Positions 1 to 38,190 of a stretch of DNA of 64,000 nt are shown piece by piece; positions within the stretch are counted from its first letter, which is position 1, and each line of letters starts with the position of its first letter. The notes beneath the pieces are model-generated. The model saw nothing but the letters and a program-made list of their open reading frames with translations, did no database searches and was not told the DNA's origin. A program made the position numbers and the translations under genes. The stretch lies in the NCBI RefSeq assembly GCF_003018235.1, contig NZ_CP027437.1. One strand, written 5' to 3'. The DNA comes from Escherichia coli (GTDB lineage: Bacteria; Pseudomonadota; Gammaproteobacteria; Enterobacterales; Enterobacteriaceae).

Positions 1-306
1 TTATCCATCGGTGAGCAAATCACCATGCTGTTGATCCTGATGTTGACCTCGAAAGGAATGGCTGGCGTACCACGCGCCTCAATGGTGGTTATCGCCGCCA
101 CGCTCAACCAGTTCAATATTCCGGAAGCGGGGCTGATCTTGCTGATGGGCGTTGATCCGTTCCTTGATATGGGGCGTTCCGCGACAAACGTCATGAGCAA
201 CGCAATGGGCGCTGCGATGGTGAGTCGGTGGGAAGGCGAACATTTCGGCGAGGGTTGTCGGGGTAAAGCATTAAAACCCAATGAATCGAACGTTGCTCTG
301 CCCTGA
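1..306 (+). CDS. DAACS-family (DctA/GltP-like) dicarboxylate/amino-acid:cation symporter, C-terminal fragment; 5' end lies outside the window
   Basis: Frame 1 is open from position 1 to a stop at 304-306. The C-terminal sequence (…GVPRASMVVIAATLNQFNIPEAGLILLMGVDPFLDMGRSATNVMSNAMGAAMVSRWE) resembles the conserved C-terminal region of GltP/DctA-type symporters as I recall them. Confidence 0.6.
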   Translation, partial: LSIGEQITMLLILMLTSKGMAGVPRASMVVIAATLNQFNIPEAGLILLMGVDPFLDMGRSATNVMSNAMGAAMVSRWEGEHFGEGCRGKALKPNESNVALP

Positions 307-413
307 GGGGGATCTTAAGCAATCAGAAGCCAATGACTACGCATTTTTATAAGCCGGATCATGAAGTTAGACGGCAATTAAGTAACACTAACGTTTAAGG
401 TGAAAAGTGAAAT

Positions 414-1610
414 ATGTCCAAACCATTTATCTGGCAAGAACCGTTTCTACAAAATAAAGACGGTACAGAATATACATTAATTAGCGATCAACATATTACA
501 GTAACGGAATTAGACGGCGAAGAAGTGATAAAAATCGCTCCTGAAGCATTAACGCTGCTTGCCCGGCAGGCATTTTATGAAGCCTCTTTTTTCTTACGTT
601 CCGCTCATTTGCAACAGGTCGCCAGCATTCTTAACGATCCGCAGGCCAGTAGTAATGATAAATACGTTGCGTTGCAGTTATTACGTAATGCTGAAGTCTC
701 AGCAAAAGGGGTATTACCCAACTGTCAGGATACCGGCACCGCAACTATTGTTGCCAGTAAAGGGCAACAGATATGGACGGGAGGTAACGACGCTGAAGCC
801 TTAAGCAAAGGCATTTACAGTACTTTCCAGGAAAATAATCTGCGCTTTTCACAAAATGCGCCGCTGGATATGTATACCGAAGTCAATACGCAAACCAATC
901 TCCCGGCGCAGATTGATATCAGCGCTGTCGCTGGTAATGAGTACCATTTTCTCTGTGTTAATAAAGGGGGCGGCTCCGCCAATAAAGCCGCACTTTATCA
1001 GGAAACCAAATCCTTATTGCAACCAGAAAAACTGACCGCATTTTTAATCGAAAAAATGAAATCGCTGGGCACCGCTGCCTGCCCGCCTTACCACATCGCC
1101 TTTGTCGTCGGAGGGCTTTCAGCCGATCAAACCTTAAAAGTTGCCAAGCTGGCCTCTACGAAATATTACGACAATTTGCCCACCAGCGGAAACGAGCAGG
1201 GACAAGCATTCCGTGATATTGAGCTGGAAAAAGTGTTGCTCGAGGTCAGTCAGCAATTTGGTATTGGTGCGCAATTTGGGGGTAAATATTTCGCTCATGA
1301 TATTCGCGTCATTCGTCTGCCGCGTCACGGTGGCTCTTGCCCGATAGCTATGGCGCTCTCCTGTTCTGCCGATCGCAATATCAAAGCAAAAATTAACAAG
1401 CACGGTATCTGGCTGGAAAAACTCGAACACAATCCGGGGCAATATATTCCAGCCTCACTGCGGGAAGAAAATCACGCGCAACATGTACAACTGGATCTAA
1501 ACCGTCCGTTGCGTGACGTGATGCAGGATCTCGCCAGATTACCGGTAGGCACCCGCGTGTCGTTAAGTGGTCCCATCGTAGTGGCACGCGATATCGCCAC
1601 GCCAAAATAA
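414..1610 (+). CDS. Class I (Fe-S) fumarate hydratase / L(+)-tartrate dehydratase family protein, N-terminal 398 aa; reading frame interrupted relative to full-length FumA-type enzymes
   Basis: 398-aa ORF whose sequence aligns, from memory, with FumA/TtdA. The C-terminal domain continues in the -1 frame (next feature). Confidence 0.75.
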
Positions 1611-1636
1611 AAGCGCGGCTGGATAACGCCGAACCG

Positions 1637-2065
1637 ATGCCGGATTACCTGAAGCATCATATTGTCTATTACGCTGGCTCGGCGAAAACACCGGAGAACA
1701 TGGCCTGCGGTTCACTGGGTCCAACCACGGGCGGTCGAATGGACGGTTATGTCGATACCTTCCAGGCGGCTGGCGGCAGTCTGGTGATGTTATCGAAAGG
1801 TAACCGCAGCCAGCAGGTCACCGATGCCTGTCACAAACATGGTGGCTTCAATCTGGGTAGTATTGGCGGTGCAGCTGCGTTACTGGCGCAAGAATATGTC
1901 AAAAGTCTGCGTTGCCTGGAATACCCGGAGCTGGGTATGGAAGCGGTGTGGATGATGGAAGTGGAAAATCTGCCCGCATTCATCCTGGTAGATGATAAAG
2001 GCAATAATTTCTTTAGTCAGTTTGAGCAGCAACACCGCTGCGCCAGTTGCCCTGCGGGACATTAA
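1637..2065 (+). CDS. Class I fumarate hydratase family, C-terminal (beta-type) domain fragment; probable continuation of the 414-1610 ORF after a frameshift
   Basis: 142-aa ORF ([12 protein letters not shown]…[12 protein letters not shown]…[12 protein letters not shown]) matching my recollection of the FumA C-terminal domain. The same frame read upstream (…[21 protein letters not shown]) matches the FumA linker. Confidence 0.7.
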
Positions 2066-2074
2066 GGAAAATGA

Positions 2075-2677
2075 ATGGAAGCGCGAATTTCAACTGAACG
2101 GCATGTGCAGCGCCAGCAGAAATTGAAGGAACAGGTCGATACGCGCATCGCGGCGGCGATAGAGAAAAAAGGGATTTTGATTGTTTTCACCGGCAATGGC
2201 AAAGGGAAATCCACTGCCGCGTTTGGTACTGTGACGCGCGCGGTGGGTCATGGCAAAACGGTGGGGGTTGCGCAGTACATCAAGGGGCAATGGGACAACG
2301 GCGAATACAACCTTCTCCAGCCGCTGGGGGTTGAGTTTCATATTATGGGAACCGGTTTTACCTGGGAGACACAGAACCGGCAAGCGGATATCGACGCGGC
2401 GAAAGAGGTCTGGTCGGAAAGCAAACGGATGCTGGCTGACAAGCGTTACGACTTAGTGGTGCTTGATGAGCTGACCTATATGCTGGCTTACCATTATCTG
2501 GATACCGAAGAAGTGATCGCTTCTCTGCAAAACCGCCCGGCACAACAAAGTGTCATTGTCACCGGACGCGGTTGCCACAGTCAGATATTAAAAATGGCGG
2601 ATACGGTCAGCGAAATCCGCCCCGTCAAACATGCTTTTGATAACGGCATTCAGGCCCAGCCGGGTATCGACTGGTAA
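2075..2677 (+). CDS. Cob(I)yrinic acid a,c-diamide / cob(I)alamin adenosyltransferase family protein (CobA/CobO/BtuR-like P-loop ATPase), a paralog rather than btuR itself
   Basis: 200-aa ORF with a P-loop (IVFTGNGKGKSTAAFG) and overall similarity to BtuR as recalled (…VLDELTYM…VIVTGRG…VSEIRPVKHAF). RBS AAGGA lies 6 nt upstream and the start is 10 nt past the fumarase stop, so the genes look co-transcribed. Confidence 0.75.
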   Translation: MEARISTERHVQRQQKLKEQVDTRIAAAIEKKGILIVFTGNGKGKSTAAFGTVTRAVGHGKTVGVAQYIKGQWDNGEYNLLQPLGVEFHIMGTGFTWETQNRQADIDAAKEVWSESKRMLADKRYDLVVLDELTYMLAYHYLDTEEVIASLQNRPAQQSVIVTGRGCHSQILKMADTVSEIRPVKHAFDNGIQAQPGIDW

Positions 2678-2680
2678 TAA

Positions 2681-2713
2681 CTGCGCCTGGCATCCCGCCA
2701 GGCGCAGGTTTTA
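2681..2713. terminator. Probable bidirectional intrinsic terminator between the convergent CobA-like and LysR genes
   Basis: Perfect 11-bp inverted repeat ctgcgcctggc / gccaggcgcag with a 5-nt loop (2681-2707), followed by gtttta. Confidence 0.5.
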
Positions 2714-3616
2714 CATCTCCTGCGGTACAACCGATTTCGCCAGCAACCATTCACGAAATTGCTGCAAGTGCGGTGAGTCAGACTTCTCTTCCTGCCACGT
2801 CATAATAAAACGATTACCGGTACGAATAGGCACATCACAGGGGATCACCATATCGCCACTATCCAAATCATGTTGAATAGCGAAACGTGGTAACAGCGCC
2901 ACGCCGAGATTAGAGCGCACGGCGGCAATCAGCATTGAAAGCAAATCGAAACGTGGTCCGTTGTTGACCAGCGGACTGCTAACGCCAGATAAGGCAAACC
3001 ACTCTTCCCAGCCAGTAATACGGGTACTTTGATGCAGAAGTGGTAACTCTGTAAGCAGTTCTGCCACTGACAGTTTTTGATCGGACATTGCAAGCAAACT
3101 GCCGCTGCATACCGGCAAAATCTCCTCATCAAAGAGATATTCTACTTCCGCCCAGGGCGCGCAAAAATTTTCGCGCATAATGACAGCATCGTACTCCCGA
3201 TTAAGAAAATCGCCGTTATTAGCTAAAGAGTGAATATTAACAATAATATCGGGATGTAACTTTGTGAATTCATGTAAATTTGGGATTAACCAGTGGGTAC
3301 TAAACGTAGGATTCACGGCAAGTTCAATAACCTGAACCGTAGGCTGCCAGGTCATAATGGTATTGGTATCGCGTTCCAGCTTATTTAATGTTTCTTTTAC
3401 TATCCCCAGGTAATACTTCCCTGCATCATTAAGAAAAATACGTTTTTTAGAGTGTGAAAATAACGGAGTATGTAAAAATTCCTCCAGCGCACTCACTTGT
3501 CTGAATACTGCACTTTGGGTCAACGCTAACTCCTCTGCCGCTTTGGTATAACTTTCATGACGTGCGACGACCTCAAAAGTCACCAGCAGCTCCGTTTTAG
3601 GTATTTTTCCTCGCAT
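2711..3616 (-). CDS. LysR-family transcriptional regulator
   Basis: 301-aa ORF with an N-terminal HTH (…YTKAAEELALTQSAVFRQVSALEEFL…) and LysR-type substrate-binding domain architecture. AT-rich upstream region at 3617-3900. Confidence 0.8.
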   Translation of the reverse strand: MRGKIPKTELLVTFEVVARHESYTKAAEELALTQSAVFRQVSALEEFLHTPLFSHSKKRIFLNDAGKYYLGIVKETLNKLERDTNTIMTWQPTVQVIELAVNPTFSTHWLIPNLHEFTKLHPDIIVNIHSLANNGDFLNREYDAVIMRENFCAPWAEVEYLFDEEILPVCSGSLLAMSDQKLSVAELLTELPLLHQSTRITGWEEWFALSGVSSPLVNNGPRFDLLSMLIAAVRSNLGVALLPRFAIQHDLDSGDMVIPCDVPIRTGNRFIMTWQEEKSDSPHLQQFREWLLAKSVVPQEM

Positions 3617-4180
3617 AATGCCGTCCCTTAAAAATAGTTTAAACCATCAAAAATACATTACTTATTACGAAGTAATGGTAACCAAAGCAGCAATAAATAA
3701 TTTATAAGAATCATGATTGACATTTATAACCCAGTAAGCCTGGCGTGACAAATATCTTAATCAGATAATAATAATCCGAAAAGCACAGCGCCTTTCGAAT
3801 TATCCGGAATCACATTAAGTGAAAATTATTAAATTGATATCATTTATCATATCTGTGGATATTATGATAAACAATCAACAAAGATTTTATTTTTGATTTA
3901 TAGCATATCCCTCTAAGAATTTTTGCGATGCTGCAATATCCGGGGTAAAGACCCGATCCTGGCTGACAAATGGCACGACTTGACGATAAGCGGTGAACAT
4001 CGCTTTTGTTGATTTACTTAACGCTACGGTCAAACGCTGGGAAGCCAGTGCATCAGGTAACGATTCGAAATTCGCCGTCGTTCTTATTCGTGGCTTGCGG
4101 TCGGTTGCGGCAATCCACAGTGGCTGTGGTCATGCAGTCAAGCCAGCGGTCAGATTTCGACCGTGGTTAACATTTAAGGC

Positions 4181-29947: not shown

Positions 29948-30856
29948 TACTGCTCCTGAGATATTAACAGGAGTAAGTGTAGACGTTGGGAAATGATGTT
30001 TGTGAAGTTAATCCTGTTGTAGCAGGGCAAAATTACGAAAGCACGCTCCCCGCAAGGACTGACGCCAGATAGTTTCTGTCCATGGCTGCCCTTTCCATTC
30101 AAACGTGAAATCAATAAGTTCATCAGGGACATCGCAAACAATATGAAGTCAGATTTCTTCTCTGCCGTGACTCTTTTCACTCATTGCGTAACTGTCATGC
30201 TCTGGATTATTTAATTCTTTCAGTGGAATTTTTTCCTCAAAGGCTTTATTTAGCCGCCCCTGATTTCCTTTTACAGCGAATAAATAATCACCTCCCTGTT
30301 TTTGTATCTTCTCTGCAATATCTTTCTGGCAACCCATCGCATCAGTTGTGATAATTTTTCCTTTAATATCCAACATGTTAAGAAGTTCAGGGGTAACTCT
30401 AATCTCATTGGATTTCTCATCCGTCTTGATCTGTCCGATGACCAGACTGTGCATTGTTCAGAACGCACTAATGACATGAATCGCTCCCCTGCGGCGACTC
30501 TTGTCATAAGAGTGCCGGAGCGTTTTTCCATCAATTGCAATGACGCCTTTATCATCTGAAGAATGGCAGTCACGCATCCAGTTAATAAAGCACTCGTGAA
30601 ATTTTGCAGGACTGATACAGGATACAACTCTGGCAATGGTATCGTGAACAGGAATACCATTTTCAAAATCACCATATTGTTTTAAAAAATCGAGATGTGT
30701 TTCCCCAAAATCCTCTATATCTTCCCAGCCTTCTGCACCAGAAATAACGGCACAAATAGTCAACAGTAGAATATCCGACAATTTATGTTCCACTTTCCAG
30801 GCTTGTCTGTAATCGGGAATAATAGAAATATGTTCCATCAGTTTTTTAAGTTCCAT
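29947..30856 (-). mobile_element. ISAs1-family (H-repeat-associated) transposase gene, disrupted (in-frame TGA at 30458-30460 and a downstream frameshift)
   Basis: Three consecutive minus-strand ORFs (30458-30856, 30149-30454, 29947-30180) which I recognise as pieces of an H-rpt/ISAs1-type transposase ([32 protein letters not shown]… / …[28 protein letters not shown]…). Confidence 0.75.
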
Positions 30857-31020
30857 TTTGTGCTCCTTAATTATGTAAGGAGTATTTGATCATGTATAAG
30901 CAATAAAAAACAGCTTCAGGTAATGAGGAATATCTCAATTTTTAAACATAAAATGCGAATTATTTAGCACAAAAAAGCAGCGTTACGTGATCTTTCCCTG
31001 GTGATAAACGAGAAATAAAT

Positions 31021-31053
31021 AAAAGGGGCGAGGCTGATTTCGCCCCCTTTTAT
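31021..31053. terminator. Probable intrinsic terminator downstream of the orphan immunity gene
   Basis: Hairpin aggggcga…tcgcccc flanked by A/T runs on both strands. Confidence 0.5.
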
Positions 31054-31056
31054 TAT

Positions 31057-31422
31057 TTAACAATATTTAACTTCATATTTCCCTATAATATCGAACACAT
31101 GGTCATAAGTACTGATAATTATGTGCTGAACTCCATCTCTTTGGATATCCTCTACTAAATCGAAACTTGATTTAGTATATTGTTCAAAAGGATAATCATC
31201 AACTTTGTATATAGATAACTTTTCAATTTTGCTAATAAAAAACTCGAGACTAATATCATAAGCATCTTTAATAGCAGGTTTGCAGGCAGACAACGATAAG
31301 GAAGCTTTGATGGTAAAGTTAAATGGATACAGATTTAACTCTGTCCCAGTTAAAATCAACGCATCTCGACCATATATTTGACCATATTTTGTTTCTAGTG
31401 CTTTTACAATCATATTAGCCAC
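31057..31422 (-). CDS. Putative immunity protein paired with the orphan Rhs C-terminal toxin
   Basis: 121-aa AT-rich ORF whose start (GTG 31422 or ATG 31413) abuts or overlaps the stop of the upstream orphan toxin frame, the usual toxin/immunity arrangement. No recognisable family. Confidence 0.55.
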   Translation of the reverse strand: MANMIVKALETKYGQIYGRDALILTGTELNLYPFNFTIKASLSLSACKPAIKDAYDISLEFFISKIEKLSIYKVDDYPFEQYTKSSFDLVEDIQRDGVQHIIISTYDHVFDIIGKYEVKYC

Positions 31423-31882
31423 AACCTCTTGTCCTCACTGTTCTGCCGCCATTTTGAGTTGAAAATCTTCGATCTAAATTAATTTTTGACAATTCCTCTG
31501 GAGTAGCCCATCTCGAAGGAATCTTCGATACACCGGCTGCTTTGGCAGCATAAAGTCGTCTGTTATCTAAAGTAAAGACTGAATCTTTATGAGCACCTTG
31601 TGATAACAATCTCTCTTGAACATTTACAGGTAAATCCCGCATTCTAACTTTTCTAATAGGTTCAACGTGATTTATATATGACGGGTCATTTATAAGTCTG
31701 TGAATAAGTCCATTAACATTTCTTCCGTCTTCAAAAACACCATTCATACTATCTTGTGAGAATAGAATTGTTTTAGGACTTACTGGTGATAATCCAAGAG
31801 GATCTATCCATGATAACGGGTTTGGAACATAACTATAGAGGTTTAATCCCCCCTCCAGCCCTATCGGGTCAGGATGCGCAAT
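31415..31882 (-). pseudogene. Orphan Rhs C-terminal toxin module (start-less fragment retaining only the DPxGL end of the Rhs core)
   Basis: Minus-strand frame reads …DPIGLEGGLNLYSYVPNPLSWIDPLGL followed by a ~125-aa unique domain (…MNGVFEDGRNVNGLIHRLIND…TLDNRRLYAAKAAGVSKIP…). The frame opens after a stop at 31883-31885 with no in-frame start until M at 31747. Confidence 0.7.
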
Positions 31883-32006: not shown

Positions 32007-32435
32007 TTATTGGTGCTTCGATTTAAAAAACTCCCAATACTTTGGAGTATATCCTTTAAATGCTCTATGTTTCCCTTTTTCATAAGCTTTCAGGAAACAT
32101 TCGTAAGCCTCATCGTTTTCACCTAATTCTAGACAAACACCCCCTAAGTTAATCAGTTCAGATGTGGAATATAGTGGAATTTCACACTTAAAAATTTCAA
32201 CTGCCCAGTATTTTGCCTCATTATATTTTTTAAGGTCAAAATACACACCATAAATGCAACGAATCAACCATGCAGAAACTCCATCACCAAAAGAATATTT
32301 CGGCTCAGGTAAACTATCCCACAAAGAAAGATAAAGTTTTAAAGCACCATAGGCATCTCCTTGATCTTCAAGAACGTTACCATCTTCGATTTGCTTTACT
32401 ATGCTTTCTTCAAGCACTGGTCTGGTACTACTCAT
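32007..32435 (-). CDS. Putative cognate immunity protein for the main Rhs C-terminal toxin
   Basis: 142-aa AT-rich ORF 73 nt downstream of the Rhs stop on the same strand. No recognisable family. Confidence 0.55.
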   Translation of the reverse strand: MSSTRPVLEESIVKQIEDGNVLEDQGDAYGALKLYLSLWDSLPEPKYSFGDGVSAWLIRCIYGVYFDLKKYNEAKYWAVEIFKCEIPLYSTSELINLGGVCLELGENDEAYECFLKAYEKGKHRAFKGYTPKYWEFFKSKHQ

Positions 32436-32508
32436 TGCAAGCTACTCCATATGTATAAAATGAAAATTCACATAGTTCTAACTAGCTAATATATAACAAC
32501 CGATTTCT

Positions 32509-35500
32509 CTATTTTATGATTGGCGGTACAATTGGAGGTGTCACTGGTGGTAAGTATACTTGACCAAGTTTAGCCCCAGCAGAACGGTTAAGAGAATAAT
32601 GATCCAAATAATAATTTTTTGAATCCAGCATCCAATCCCTGACAGGTTTAGACTTCGGCCCCAAAAATCTACCAGTATTATTCCACCATGTAACGGCATC
32701 TGTCTTATGAGACATATCTGCTTCACTTAATGGATGCCAGACACCTTCAGAATCTTTAAACTCCATCCGGGAACCTGTCCCTCTAATTTTTCCATCATTT
32801 CTCATCCGAGCAATAACCTCACGGCCTGTTCGGCTATTCTTCCCTGGGGTTCTTCCTAAGAAATCACAACGTTTTGACAGCCCTAATGGGTCAATCCACC
32901 CCAGCGGATTAGGCGCATAAGCATACAGGTTCAGCCCGCCCGCCAGCCCTATCGGGTCCGTTACCATGAACCGCCCGACATCCGGATCATAGTACCTGTG
33001 CAGATTGTAATGCAGCCCCGTTTCCCTGTCGAGGTACTGTCCCTGGTAGCGCAGGTTCTGCTCCACCCCGCCGTGGTCCTTCTCCTGTATCGTGTTACCC
33101 CAGACCTGATACCCCGTCTCCCACACGATTTTCCCGTCGCTGTCCGTCATCTCTTCCGGCGCGCCGTTCACATCCGTGTGAAAATACAGTATCCGGTTCG
33201 GGCCCTCTTTACCCACCTTATCCACCCGCGCCAGCGGTTCATAACTCCCCGGGTCGCTGTAGATATACAGGCTGCTTATTCCCTCCGGCCTGCTCTCCTG
33301 CGCCAGCCGCATTCCGTCCCATAAAAATGTCGTCCGGTTGTACGGTTTACCGTCAGGGCTGATGTGCTGTTTTTCCGTCCGCCTCCCCAGCGCATCGTAC
33401 ACATACCGGTACGTTCCCCGCGCTGTCGTCACTTCCACCATCCGGTGTTCCGCATCATAACGGTAACTCTGCGTGCCGCTCCGGCCCTCCTTTTCCACCG
33501 CACGGCCAAATTCGTCGTAACGGTAGTGCACACCACGGTAAGACATCAGCCGGTTGAACGGCACCACGCTGTTTTCTGCCGTGGCCCTTTCCCCCGCGCG
33601 CCGCGCCAGCAGGTTTCCCGCCGCGTCGTACTCCCAGCTCGCCAGATACCCCTCATCCTCCGAGCGGCACGCCGTGATGCGCCCCGTGGGGTCGTAGAAG
33701 TAATCCGTTTCCCCCCGCCGGCTGTGCCGCGTCTTCAGCAGTTCATCCTCGCCGCTGTAGCTGTACTGCCGGTCCGTGAACGTCTCCGGTACCACCCCGC
33801 GCATCCCGCTGTATGTCTCCCTGCGCTTCAGCCGCCCGGCGGGGTCATAAAGCTGCCGCGTGCTCAGTCGCCCCTGACTTCTGAGCACTTCCCGGTGCAG
33901 GGCGTCACGTGTGAACTCGCTGATGACCTCCCGGTCCAGATTTATCTGCTGGAGATGGCCGCTGCCGTAGTACAGATGACGCTGCGTTCTGCCGTCCGGA
34001 AAGGAGGTGGCTGTCCGGTTGCTGAGTTCATCGTACTGATGGGTCAGGACGCCCTGCGCCGTCTCCTCAGTCAGCATCCGCCCCAGTCTGTCGTAACTGA
34101 AGCGGATAATCTCCGGTGCGTCCATTTCCCCGGCATCCGACCGTCGGCGGCGGATTTCCAGTAGCTGGTCTGCCGCATCATGGACGTATTCCGTACGGCT
34201 ATCGGCTGTCTCCTTTGCCGTGAGCCGGCCCGCCGCATCACGTGCCAGCCGGTGGCGGATTTCACCGCCCCGGTCCCCTGTGAACACCACTTCCGTGACC
34301 GCGTTCAGCACGTTGTAACGGTACGTCTGGCGGCAGCCGTCCGGATTTATCTGCTCCGCCAGACGGTCCAGCACATCATGGCGGAACCGGTAGTTTTCTC
34401 CGTTCTCGTTCGTGAGCGTGACCAGACGCCCGTAAGCATCGTACCCGAACGCCGTCCTGCGCCCCGTCGCGTCTGTCCGGCTGCGCACCCGGCCCTGCCC
34501 GTCCCGCTGCCAGCGCGTTATCCTCCCCATCGGGCTGGTGTACTTCACGAGCCTGCCCGCCGCGTCCGACTGGTAATTCACCGTGCGGCCGTCCGCCAGT
34601 ATCACCTCCGTCAGGTGGCCGCTGTCGTCATACCCGTAGCGCGTGCTGTGGCTCTGCGCGTCTGTCATCCGTATCAGCCGCGTGCGTTCGTCGTAGAACC
34701 AGGCCGTCTGCGAGCCGGAACAGTCCGTGTGCCGCATGAGCTGTCCGTCTTCGTTCCACTGAAGGTATTTATTCCCCCCGCGCGCATCCGTTATCTGCAC
34801 CACCTGACCGTGGCGGTCATACTGATACCGGGTGTTCTGCTGCAGCGGGTCGGTCACCGCAAGAAGATTGCCGCGTTCATCGTACTCACAGCACCAGCTG
34901 TTCCCCGCCGCGTCCACCTCCGTTTCCGGCTGGTGCCACACCGGGTGCCACTGTGTCTGTGCCACCCGCCCCAGCGGGTCGTGCGTCTCCGTGATATGCC
35001 CCTGCCGGTCATACACATAGCGCCATTTGCCGCCCTGCGCATCGGTCATTCCCAGTAACAGCCGTTCTTCGTCGCTCCAGCGGAACGTCGTCACCTGCCC
35101 GGCTTCGTCCTGGTACGCCGTCACCTGGTTCTGCGCGTCCCACTGATGATAACGCGTGCGCCCCAGCCCGTCCGTCACGCACAGCCTGCGTGCCGCGAGG
35201 CTCCACGCCAGCCGGTACTGTTCACCGCTGTCCGTGTGGTGCCCCGTCACCCGCCACGCTGCGTCATCCGGGCCTTCATACCAGCCCCACTGGTAATAAT
35301 ACCCTTCGCCGCCCGGCTGGCGGTGCAGGGTCATGCAGTGGTTTTCGTCGTAAGCAAACTCGCGCAGCAGGTGCCCCGTGCTGTCGTACACGCCGTTCAG
35401 GTCGCCGGCCTCGTCATAGCGGTAACGACGCAGCAGTAAAGGAGCCGTCTCAGGGAAATGCTGATAAATCTGTGTCACCCGCCGGGGATGCGCCGCCAGT

Positions 35501-37188
35501 TCATAATGCAGACGGATGCACGGACGCTGCTGTTCACCGCTGATTTGCGTGATGCGCCCCAGCTCGTCGTAGTACAGATTCAGACAGTTGCTGTTGCGGT
35601 CGCCCAGCATTTTCAGCCGCTGGTGCTGCGGGTGATGCGGGTCGGCTTCAAACAGAAAAAACTGCCCGTCATCGCTGCTGATAAGCCAGTGCCCCTGCTC
35701 ACCCCGCCGTACTGCCAGTCCTTCGCCGGGGCTGTAAAACCCGCTCCCCGGCAGCACAGCCTCCATATCCAGGCGTCGTCCCATGCCCGACACAAAGGTC
35801 ATACAGTTTTCGTCAGCAGTACCCGGCGTGCGCACGAGGCTGACTTCATACATCACGCTCCAGCCCTGCCCGAACATCCCTTCCGTGCGGTCGTCACGAC
35901 TGCTGTACACGCGCTGCCAGTCCAGCGGAAAGTGGCCCGGCAGACTGAAGTCAAAATCATCGTCATCGGCCAGATATTTGGCTCCGGTGGCGGCATTGAC
36001 CGGATGCGGAAGGGCACTGATGGCCTTCTGCGTCATCACCCCCATCCCGACACTGGCAGCAAAACAGGCGATTTTAGAAAGCATTTTGCCCGGGCGAAGA
36101 AACATCAGCGCCACGGTTGCCACCAGGGTTATCTGCGACCTGCCGCTTCTGATATCCCTGACCACCAGTAACGGACCGCCAATGCGGACATCCGGTGACA
36201 CAAACGCCCCGTTCCCCGGCTCATTCACCACCCTGGCCTCGCAGGTGCAGCGTGCCCCGCTGCGTGCCGCCGGCTGGCTGTTGATACGCACATCCCGCGC
36301 GCCTTCCGCGATATATTCCGCTGCGGGCGGTTCATCATCGCCTTTGAACAGATTACTGATGCTGCCAATAACCGCATTCACTCCCTGAAAGGCGGTTTCC
36401 AGCATACCGCCCGGACTCAGCAGGTTAAGGGCCGTTCCCAGGGGGTCATCCAGAAAGGCGGCTTTTTTTTGTGCGAGAAACTGCGTCAGTGAGGAGGGAT
36501 GTTTATGGCAGTCGATTTTATCGTCAGGGGTCGGGGTGGAGCCCGGGGCCGCACTGGCCACGGTGGGCTGCCATAGTTCCGACACAAAATGTGTCACGCC
36601 ATCCACCATTTCAGAACGCCCTTCTTCCGTACTGAGCTGGTCATGCAGCGCCCGGGACATCAGCACAGGCCCTGTCACCGGGTTAACCGCCAGGGCTATG
36701 GCCCCCGCCATTTCCAGATATTCCCCGGCCACATCCAGGAACGTTCTGGCGTCCTCCTGACGCTGCGCTTCTTCCTGTTCCGCCTTCGCCTGCGCCTCCT
36801 GCGCCTCAATGTCCTGCCGCGATGCCGCAGTCGCCGCGGCCCGCGCGGCAGGTTTGCTGTTGATCCATGTGTCGCCAGAGCCGGTGAGGATGTAACCTTC
36901 AATCTGAGGCGGGAAAAGCATATTTGCGAGGTCTGAACAGACTTCGCTGACCTTTTCTGTCACGCCGGTGTACACCATCGCCACACCCGCCACAAAACCG
37001 GTCAGCACGACGGCCGTGCACCCCATAGTGATCCCCGCTGACGTCGCCAGTAACGAGGTTGTGCCGACAATGAGGGCATCAATAACGACATTTGCGGCCA
37101 CCTCCAGCACCGCCCCCAGCACATCTGCCATAAACGACGTATGCAGCAGGGCATCACCCTGCCTTGCCGCCCAGAATGCCTCTTCCAT
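32509..37188 (-). CDS. Rhs-family polymorphic toxin with N-terminal prePAAR motif, transmembrane segments, PAAR-like motifs, YD-repeat core and variable C-terminal toxin domain (putative T6SS-delivered effector)
   Basis: 1559-aa ORF. N-terminus [16 protein letters not shown] matches AARxxDxxxH; hydrophobic stretches follow; PAAR-like motifs (…WINSKPAAR…, …[11 protein letters not shown]…); many YD repeats; core ends [27 protein letters not shown], then a ~120-aa tip. Core is very GC-rich, tip AT-rich. Confidence 0.85.
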   Translation of the reverse strand: [1559 protein letters not shown]

Positions 37189-37206: not shown

Positions 37207-37436
37207 TTAATTCGTCCCGGCTTCCTGCCGCATCCTGAAGCGCAGATTCTTTTTAATTTCAGCCCAGCGCGTCATATCTGCCGGGGTCAGCGGTGTGGTT
37301 CTGGCGTAGGTGAAGGCCATCATGACCCGCTCACCCGGCAATACAAATGCCACCTGACACTGGTACACCTGCTCGTTACCCCGGAGAAACTGGCTCTGTA
37401 TTTGCAAACCGCCTCATTGAGATAATATTCCGTCAT
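37207..37436 (-). pseudogene. Possible remnant of an Eag/DUF1795-like chaperone gene immediately upstream of rhs
   Basis: ATG at 37436 with an AGGA RBS gives MTEYYLNEAV… then terminates; the +1 frame continues as …QIQSQFLRGNEQVYQCQVAFVLPGERVMMAFTYARTTPLTPADMTRWAEIKKNLRFRMRQ, ending 19 nt before the rhs start. Family assignment is from memory and weak. Confidence 0.35.
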
Positions 37437-38190
37437 AATAGAAGTCGTCCTTTTTAATAAATGAATTATTTATTGACAGGTTCTGTTTTTTAATCATGAA
37501 TGTAATGTCTATCACCGCTTTACAGCACTCTTTATCTTTCAAGCGGTAATCACTAATAACATTAAGCAATTACCCATATTTACAATGACCGGAACTGATA
37601 TGCCGTTATGTATTTAACAATCCCAACATATTCACCATACCAATAAAATCACGAGTAACAAACACGCTACCGCCTCCATATAAAAAATGGACAGCTTATA
37701 AAATTGCATCTTGCATAGAAAGGGCTGAGATATCGAGTGTATTTTAATTATCAACTATAAATCTTGAATATTTTCATTAACAGAAACACATCTTATCCCA
37801 TTAGATATGTTAACAATCAATTATTCTTAACATATCACTAAAGTATATATTACTCTCTTTACTATCTGTTTTTATTGCGGTAGCGATATTAATAGCAAAA
37901 TTCGGAATTTATTTAGATGCTGGAATAAGAAAAAATGATGACGGCTTTCTTACCTTACCCTGAAGTTTCAGGAAAGTGTGTAAGGAAGGATGCAACCTAA
38001 CTGGAGATTTCTGAGGATCTAGTTGCTTAGAGCGACAATGAAGGTGAACGCATCCAGAGTAGTCCTATGAAAGGATACTATTGAAAATTGATGCTAAAAC
38101 AGTGATTAAATGAACAACACCATGGAACCCGTTGATTCAAAACGCCTAAACCAGCCCCCTGATACGAGGCTGGCTTAAACGCGCAGGCAA

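Follow-up and report, generated by a model that had tools for sequence, protein, structure and literature searches.

A divergent GH-E-type toxin tip on an Escherichia coli Rhs protein and the tetratricopeptide-repeat protein predicted to be its immunity partner

Contig NZ_CP027437.1 of Escherichia coli (assembly GCF_003018235.1) contains, within the 64,000-nucleotide stretch analysed here and referred to below as the window, a gene for a large Rhs protein whose C-terminal domain, or tip, is followed closely by a small gene. Its homologues place the tip in a large clade within the GH-E / YqcG C-terminal family of HNH-EndoVII nucleases (PF14410), and the small gene encodes a protein of three tetratricopeptide repeats (TPRs), which appears to be the dedicated immunity protein of the tip and is predicted to neutralise it. 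The preferred reading, to which a probability of about 0.8 is given, is that the Rhs protein is an effector of the kind exported by type VI secretion systems (T6SS) and that its exchangeable cassette is made up of a GH-E-clade His-Me finger nuclease and a three-TPR immunity protein. The elements concerned are as follows.

32509-37188, minus strand: open reading frame (ORF) of the Rhs effector, 1559 amino acids, taken from the ORF list; its stop codon, TAG, is at 32509-32511.
32878-32892, minus strand: DPLGL, the end of the conserved Rhs core, read from the translation.
32512-32877, minus strand: C-terminal toxin tip, 122 amino acids, a divergent domain of the GH-E / YqcG-CT type, from homologues and profile.
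32436-32508, minus strand: intergenic spacer of 73 nucleotides, from the sequence, with a GGAG Shine-Dalgarno element at 32445-32448, 9 nucleotides ahead of the ATG of the immunity gene.
32007-32435, minus strand: three-TPR protein of 142 amino acids, the predicted cognate immunity protein, from the AlphaFold2 (AF2) model, Foldseek, weak Pfam matches and gene order.

Much of this anatomy had been seen in a first-pass annotation of the DNA, which placed a tip of about 120 amino acids after DPLGL, and a 142-residue ORF 73 nucleotides further downstream, and quoted a peptide that the translation matches exactly. The sharp change in composition that it described is also present, in that GC content drops from 0.618 for the Rhs core to 0.42 once the tip is reached; the spacer stands at 0.288, the downstream ORF at 0.357 and the window as a whole at 0.513. 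Its broader suggestion, that a displaced polymorphic-toxin tip and an adjacent immunity gene sit here on an AT-rich cassette, is borne out by a breakpoint at 32888 and by the conserved pairing of the two genes, both of which are set out below.

That the same annotation could not assign the tip to a toxin family is readily understood, since the single sequence escapes searches of Pfam, NCBIfam and PDB sequences. Taken alone it has no match in Pfam, NCBIfam or PADLOC, nothing is found among PDB sequences either by phmmer or by profile, and hmmscan against PF14410 gives no GH-E match even at E ≤ 10. The family becomes apparent from the homologues, of which a search of 5.8 billion proteins returns 49, at 48-92% identity, from Salmonella, Proteus, Pectobacterium, Rhizobiaceae, Pseudoalteromonas, Bacillus, Prevotella and actinobacteria. 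Among them are several called ‘GH-E family nuclease’ or ‘HNH/ENDO VII family nuclease’, and PF14410 is present in two. Proteins that go by the names GH-E, HNH/EndoVII nuclease or ‘Toxin YqcG C-terminal domain’, some of them so labelled by NCBI and UniProt, share 50-90% identity with the tip; in AFDB50 the matches lie at 56-66% identity and bear the labels ‘Toxin YqcG C-terminal domain’, ‘GH-E family nuclease’ or ‘HNH endonuclease’. When 33 close homologues are scanned singly, PF14410 is the sole toxin family to recur among them, appearing in seven at E ≤ 1e-3 and in 17 at E ≤ 0.1, and over about 90% of its length the tip is 50-66% identical to the proteins that match PF14410. On a wider scale, clusters built at 50% identity yield 627 representatives when searched with a profile of the tip, 242 with E ≤ 1e-30. 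Of 135 such clade representatives, 22 match PF14410 at E ≤ 1e-3 and 62 at E ≤ 0.1. In other words, the tip is indeed without a Pfam match as a single sequence, but its homologues place it in the PF14410 clade, and the ‘vaguely HNH-like’ impression that had been recorded agrees with its place in that GH-E / HNH-EndoVII clade. GH-E was defined by Zhang and colleagues as a toxin of the HNH/EndoVII fold with a NucA-like active site (PMC3113570, PMC3482391).

In every profile match the domain is C-terminal, and the modules to which it is fused comprise PT-HINT, PAAR-like, DUF4280, Hcp, RHS, PT-TG and those of extracellular contractile injection systems (eCIS). A C-terminal domain carried on such varied N-terminal modules is the signature of a polymorphic-toxin domain. 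One AFDB match, at 77% identity, bears the name ‘IdrD [Proteus mirabilis]’; a tie to the characterised IdrD-CT/RdnE toxin was considered and rejected, because that toxin is a PD-(D/E)XK nuclease (PMC12483513), and the label simply reflects the name of the Rhs locus.

Over 191 clade members for which residue conservation was computed, H57, W65 and G101 are invariant, and D54, N66, N88 and N97 are conserved in at least 98% (N88 in 98%, N97 in 99%); the tip carries all of these, and retains every invariant residue of its clade, H57, N66, N88 and N97 included. Two elements are of particular interest.

32707-32709, minus strand: codon of His57, in the motif DMSH, invariant in 191 of 191 clade members.
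32587-32616, minus strand: block N88-Y-x-L-D92-H-Y-x-x-N97, identified by conservation.

By analogy with the His-Me finger family, His57 is the predicted general base, positioned at the end of the first active-site strand (residues 53-57 in the AF2 model of the tip), and the conserved Asn, Asp/Glu and Asn of the second block form the predicted metal site. The residue that precedes His57, S56 in the tip, is Ala in 99 of the 191 members (52%), Ser in 44 (23%) and Gly in 44 (23%), and position 92, Asp in the tip, is Glu in 43%, Asp in 41% and Gln in 14% of the clade. By this count Gly is no requirement before the His in this clade, and the ‘SH’ and ‘D’ of the tip are normal variants inside it; their being common there would partly explain why the clade is under-detected by a Pfam model named for G, H and E. 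E20 is also present in the tip. Residues 8-27 (32796-32856, minus strand) hold a nearly invariant clade motif, G-x-T-P-G-K-x-S-x-T-G-x-E-V-x-x-R-M. This motif, near the N-terminus of the tip, falls outside the classical HNH core and has a likeness to a phosphate-binding loop. A Walker A reading of GRTPGKNS was considered and rejected, as the spacing G-x3-G-K-N does not fit. At its other end the tip terminates in a conserved Y-x-P-P tail, which is of low confidence in the AF2 model.

For the role of the downstream gene the decisive evidence is gene order. In all seven of the other lineages examined, the tip homologue is followed directly by a TPR gene of about 140 amino acids, whether single, tandem or a fused double:

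Salmonella Rhs array: a TPR protein of 143 amino acids after the tip homologue.
Proteus Rhs orphan array: 143 amino acids.
Rhizobiaceae PAAR-DUF4123 effector cassette: 156 and 141 amino acids.
Bacillus mycoides cassette among SUKH immunity genes: 138 and 138 amino acids.
Prevotella: 147 and 144 amino acids.
WXG100-linked actinobacterial-type locus: a fused double of 296 amino acids.
Pseudoalteromonas: 141 and 139 amino acids.

The pairing spans several delivery systems, and the downstream gene co-varies with the tip, in that E. coli strain 200164, which has a different tip, has an Imm8 gene instead. In lineages other than the Enterobacteria, what usually comes after the tip homologue is a tandem pair of TPR genes, each of about 140 amino acids, or one fused double, and not a single gene; such doubled genes could encode a heterodimeric immunity protein or could be stacked immunity genes. 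The loci concerned are:

Double-TPR loci: L012, 3561-4453; L013, 3560-4404; L014, 3055-3925; L016, 3064-3954; L018, 574-1415.

The 142-residue protein has 13 homologues, among them an identical E. coli protein found on 32 contigs. A Pfam profile search, which the first-pass annotation had proposed for both proteins, returns nothing for the tip, and for this one weak TPR_1 and TPR_2 matches with the single sequence, the best at E 0.007. The AF2 model (mean predicted local distance difference test, pLDDT, 94) has seven helices and is matched by Foldseek, at template-modelling (TM) scores of 0.6-0.7, to CTPR3, to the TPRs of HOP (TPR1/2A) and to PcrH; IpgC also superposes. With a profile search of the PDB using the 142-residue family, consensus TPR proteins are again matched. 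On the model, then, the protein is one of three TPR units plus a capping helix. Its homologues also have in common a C-terminal motif that is not part of the repeats (F126, Y133, F136, K138).

Both genes appear to be under constraint. Against the copies in Salmonella and Proteus, with dS near saturation, the ratio of nonsynonymous to synonymous substitution (dN/dS) comes to about 0.10 in the tip, and in the downstream gene to 0.19-0.26. These values indicate purifying selection on tip and TPR gene, and together with the homologues described above (49 and 627 cluster representatives for the tip, 13 for the 142-residue protein) they indicate that both are real genes rather than chance ORFs.

The exchangeable nature of the cassette is evident at its upstream edge. 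Identity of 98.5% with strain 200164 extends from ybfA through the Rhs core and ends at window position 32888, inside the DPLGL codons, beyond which the two sequences have different tips. DPLGL marks both this recombination breakpoint and the site of aspartyl autoproteolysis, the role of such autocleavage in Rhs proteins having been described (PMC8636562). Downstream of the TPR gene lie the traces of another module.

31415-31870, minus strand: orphan (displaced) Rhs module, comprising 28 codons of a core end and a second tip of about 124 amino acids, from the translation.
31057-31422, minus strand: predicted immunity gene of the orphan module, 118-121 amino acids; in strain 05-3629 its counterpart, annotated as a hypothetical protein, is the gene that comes straight after rhs.
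31021-31050: bidirectional terminator-like hairpin with a stem of 9-11 bp, six GC pairs and T-runs on both strands.

The sequence of the orphan module serves as the live tip and immunity pair of an Rhs protein adjoining symE in 223 RefSeq E. coli genomes. The orphan tip has no match in Pfam, NCBIfam or PDB sequences, and its partner gene has none in NCBIfam; a stretch of the module, FTLDNRRLYAAKAAGV, bears a possible resemblance to ParB/Srx-like toxins. As a toxin, the orphan tip may be less well understood than the GH-E tip. The hairpin closes the rhs cassette array just ahead of an ISAs1 remnant. This remnant, an ISAs1-family (H-repeat) transposase gene at 30022-31001 on the minus strand, is broken into several ORFs and is about 313 bp shorter than the intact copy at the same locus in strain 200164.

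With regard to distribution, a DNA search finds no copy of the tip and immunity cassette in 5,426 complete RefSeq E. coli genomes; among E. coli assemblies it does occur in drafts and in GenBank entries. Elsewhere in the species the GH-E/TPR module can be found as an orphan in its own right, within multi-orphan arrays (L002, L003). The first of these (CP177202.1, 1-12429) is a long array at another chromosomal site, in which a full-length Rhs gene with an EndoU tip is followed by at least three orphan Rhs fragments, each with a small gene and an opposite-strand symE-family gene; the GH-E/TPR module is there an uncalled orphan.

A mechanism may be proposed from these features. The 122-residue tip would sit inside the shell of YD repeats, from which the aspartyl protease of the Rhs protein would release it by cleaving after DPLGL. 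Once in a target cell it would degrade nucleic acid, most probably chromosomal DNA, with His57 as the general base and the metal held through N88, D92 and N97. In the producer, the 142-residue TPR protein would bind the tip stoichiometrically and block the nuclease. The cassette itself would have arrived by recombination at the DPxGL-coding junction, pushing the previous tip and immunity pair downstream, where it became an orphan.

Some observations weigh against this reading. The profile of the 142-residue family also matches generic TPR proteins, and part of the TPR signal is therefore repeat consensus; the tip, as a single sequence, goes unmatched in the databases named above; and there are two shortcomings in the machinery for export, namely a gene upstream of rhs, related to DcrB and Eag, that has lost its N-terminus, and the lack of T6SS genes and of an adjacent vgrG within the 64 kb. 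The last two of these are best considered alongside the delivery features of the Rhs protein, of which the following are needed here.

37141-37170, minus strand: prePAAR motif AARQGDALLH, residues 7-16, read from the translation.
37207-37407, minus strand: Eag/DcrB-related (DUF1795) chaperone gene, a 5'-truncated 3' remnant of 66 codons, from the ORF and from annotation of a homologue by the Prokaryotic Genome Annotation Pipeline (PGAP).

The Rhs protein runs from prePAAR through a transmembrane region, PAAR, DUF6531 and the YD-repeat shell to DPLGL and the toxin tip. In its first 519 residues Pfam finds PAAR_motif (E 2.1e-5), DUF6531 (E 1.2e-18) and, weakly, prePAAR_I; the RHS and YD-shell families are recorded on near-identical proteins from other E. 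coli. The motif fits AARxxDxxxH, through which, among other features, class I prePAAR effectors have been defined (PMC7773334), and hydrophobic helices lie at about residues 20-75. By motif, transmembrane region, PAAR and Rhs repeats, the protein is to be classed on its sequence as a class I prePAAR effector. The stability and export of such Rhs effectors depend on a cognate Eag chaperone, and a VgrG is needed too (PMC7773334). Within the window there is neither an intact cognate Eag gene nor any vgrG or T6SS gene. The chaperone remnant stands directly upstream of rhs, and PGAP describes its counterpart in the homologous stretch of strain 200164 as ‘DcrB-related protein, incomplete, missing N-terminus’, a pseudogene; from 37410 to 38190, up to ybfA, the DNA is AT-rich and holds no convincing gene.

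The truncation raises the question of whether the Rhs protein can still be exported. It is conceivable, if on balance doubtful, that the cassette is a genomic relic: with the Eag gene truncated and no vgrG adjacent, the Rhs protein would no longer be delivered, and the pair would now play no part in competition, or else the immunity gene alone would still count, as protection against other strains. The persistence of orphan copies of the immunity gene, without the toxin, in other E. coli would suit such a view. The 1559-codon ORF is nevertheless intact, with prePAAR, PAAR, shell, DPLGL and all of the predicted catalytic residues in place, and several E. coli isolates have the module at 99.4-100% identity, their assemblies carrying 2.3-2.7 kb around the cassette at that same level. 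An Eag paralogue, a vgrG and a T6SS could, moreover, lie elsewhere in the genome, outside the window.

A second alternative keeps the fold and the immunity protein and differs in the substrate, the toxin acting mainly on RNA (rRNA or tRNA). It turns largely on YqcG of Bacillus subtilis, the one GH-E member to have been studied, which is an LXG toxin of the same Pfam family, PF14410 (PMC9990079). As relayed in two later papers, Holberger 2012 reported the C-terminal domain of YqcG to be an RNase when expressed in E. coli (PMC9990079, PMC4436073), and active sites of the NucA-like His-Me kind often do not discriminate between sugars. In B. subtilis, by contrast, the full-length protein destroys chromosomal DNA in vivo, such that the chromosome is removed and RNA is left intact; YqcG is neutralised by YqcF and mediates contact-dependent competition (PMC4436073, PMC8321402). 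The tip is only distantly related to YqcG itself, and neither result therefore transfers to it with certainty; action mainly on RNA is considered improbable, and chromosomal DNA is kept as the more probable substrate.

It is quite unlikely that the 142-residue protein instead serves the toxin domain as a chaperone or adaptor, in the manner of the three-TPR class II chaperones of type III secretion systems (T3SS). Its fold matches do include the T3SS chaperones PcrH, IpgC and AcrH, and TPR domains typically bind extended peptides, for which the Y-x-P-P tail of the tip might be thought suitable. The TPR gene, however, lies directly downstream of the toxin whatever the system, be it Rhs/T6SS, a PAAR protein with its own DUF4123 adaptor or a WXG/LXG-type locus; it is often duplicated in tandem; and orphan forms of it are known, one in a cassette surrounded by SUKH immunity genes and one in E. 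coli. Position, duplication and orphan copies are hallmarks of immunity genes, which makes the role of chaperone the less likely. Finally, that the tip is a new toxin family unrelated to known ones is scarcely credible: the silence of Pfam, NCBIfam, PADLOC and PDB sequences towards it would favour that view, which sequence comparison already refutes through a continuous chain of homologues at 50-90% identity, many of them annotated or scored as GH-E / YqcG-CT and with the motif pattern in common.

The overall picture, under the preferred reading, is of a real but fairly ordinary toxin/immunity pair. The window is E. coli chromosomal DNA; its minus strand runs from the kdp operon through ybfA, rhs, ISAs1 remnants, ybgA, phr and dtpD to ybgI, and the ybfA-rhs-ybgA site is the rhsC position of K-12. 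The suggestion in the first-pass annotation of a new pair, outside any known family, is not upheld, given that the tip falls in the GH-E clade and that a GH-E Rhs tip with a TPR partner has already been predicted in Salmonella (PMC11669294). What is gained is a predicted function for an unannotated E. coli Rhs tip and its partner, together with the recognition that the clade, which numbers at least 627 clusters when grouped at 50% identity, is under-detected by PF14410, with only about 16% of its sampled members passing E ≤ 1e-3. That this nuclease clade is tightly associated with a small TPR immunity protein, in different phyla and with different secretion systems, is likewise of interest; the pairing is absent from the 2012 catalogue of polymorphic toxins and is mentioned only in passing in the 2024 Salmonella survey. 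The concept of Rhs toxin action is unchanged by the finding.

A speculative extension, considered less likely than not, is that the clade may deserve to be a separate GH-E subfamily with an obligate three-TPR immunity family, as yet undefined in Pfam, in which the TPR groove might clamp the apparently disordered Y-x-P-P tail or the N-terminal motif and not cap the active site. The marks of such a candidate subfamily may be DM[ASG]H, the invariant N-terminal G-x-T-P-G-K-x-S-x-T-G and two helices between the active-site strands. No GH-E toxin and no TPR-type immunity complex would have had a structure before one of this complex; a search of PDB sequences with the tip profile finds no GH-E structure. 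With no solved GH-E structure, and with both DNase and RNase activity reported for the family, the pair is a reasonable target for biochemistry.

Comparison with known systems may begin with delivery. The class I prePAAR effectors Rhs1/SciW of Salmonella, RhsA/EagR1 of P. protegens and Rhs1 of P. laumondii have in common with the E. coli protein the AARxxDxxxH motif, one N-terminal transmembrane region and PAAR, and are also alike in the toxin-enclosing YD shell and in aspartyl autocleavage at the end of the core. They differ in having other tips, and in E. coli the eag gene is truncated and there is no adjacent vgrG.

As for the toxin, Tox-GH-E (PF14410; in InterPro, ‘Toxin YqcG C-terminal domain’) is likewise a C-terminal module on Rhs, PAAR, HINT, LXG and WXG carriers, and shows the same pattern of D-M-x-H … W-N … N-Y-x-L-[EDQ] … N-R-S-x-G with invariant His and Asn residues. 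Zhang 2012 gave its conserved residues as ‘GH, E, N, E’. The tip differs in falling below the Pfam threshold and in having Ser for the Gly of ‘GH’ and Asp for E, and its clade has in addition an N-terminal extension, G-x-T-P-G-K-x-S-x-T-G-x-E-V, that is strongly conserved. As immunity partners of Tox-GH-E, the lists gave Imm-SuFu and Imm-ank in 2012, with SUKH neighbourhoods in 2011, and no stand-alone TPR protein was among them (PMC3482391, PMC3113570). YqcG and YqcF resemble the E. coli pair in that the toxin is neutralised by the product of a downstream gene. YqcG differs in its delivery by a type VII secretion system (T7SS) through LXG, YqcF is not a TPR protein, and the relation of YqcG to the tip holds at the level of the family only. 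YqcF is an immunity protein of the SuFu type.

A like pair is FA1443_1959/FA1443_1960 of Salmonella Albany, in which a PAAR-RhsA-GH-E effector of 1,566 amino acids is accompanied by a TPR immunity protein in variable region 3 of the T6SS of Salmonella pathogenicity island 6 (SPI-6) (PMC11669294, 2024). That source is a genomic survey of Chilean Salmonella, and its GH-E/TPR pair is a bioinformatic prediction. The PAAR-Rhs-GH-E architecture, the length of about 1,560 amino acids and the TPR partner are the same in both; the Salmonella pair lies inside a T6SS island, whereas the E. coli pair is at the ybfA-rhsC-ybgA locus with no T6SS genes nearby. The Salmonella homologues found here, which are located in Rhs arrays, are 77-81% identical in the tip and 71-76% identical in the immunity protein to those of E. 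coli, and, matched by description, they and the E. coli pair probably fall in the same group as FA1443_1959/1960.

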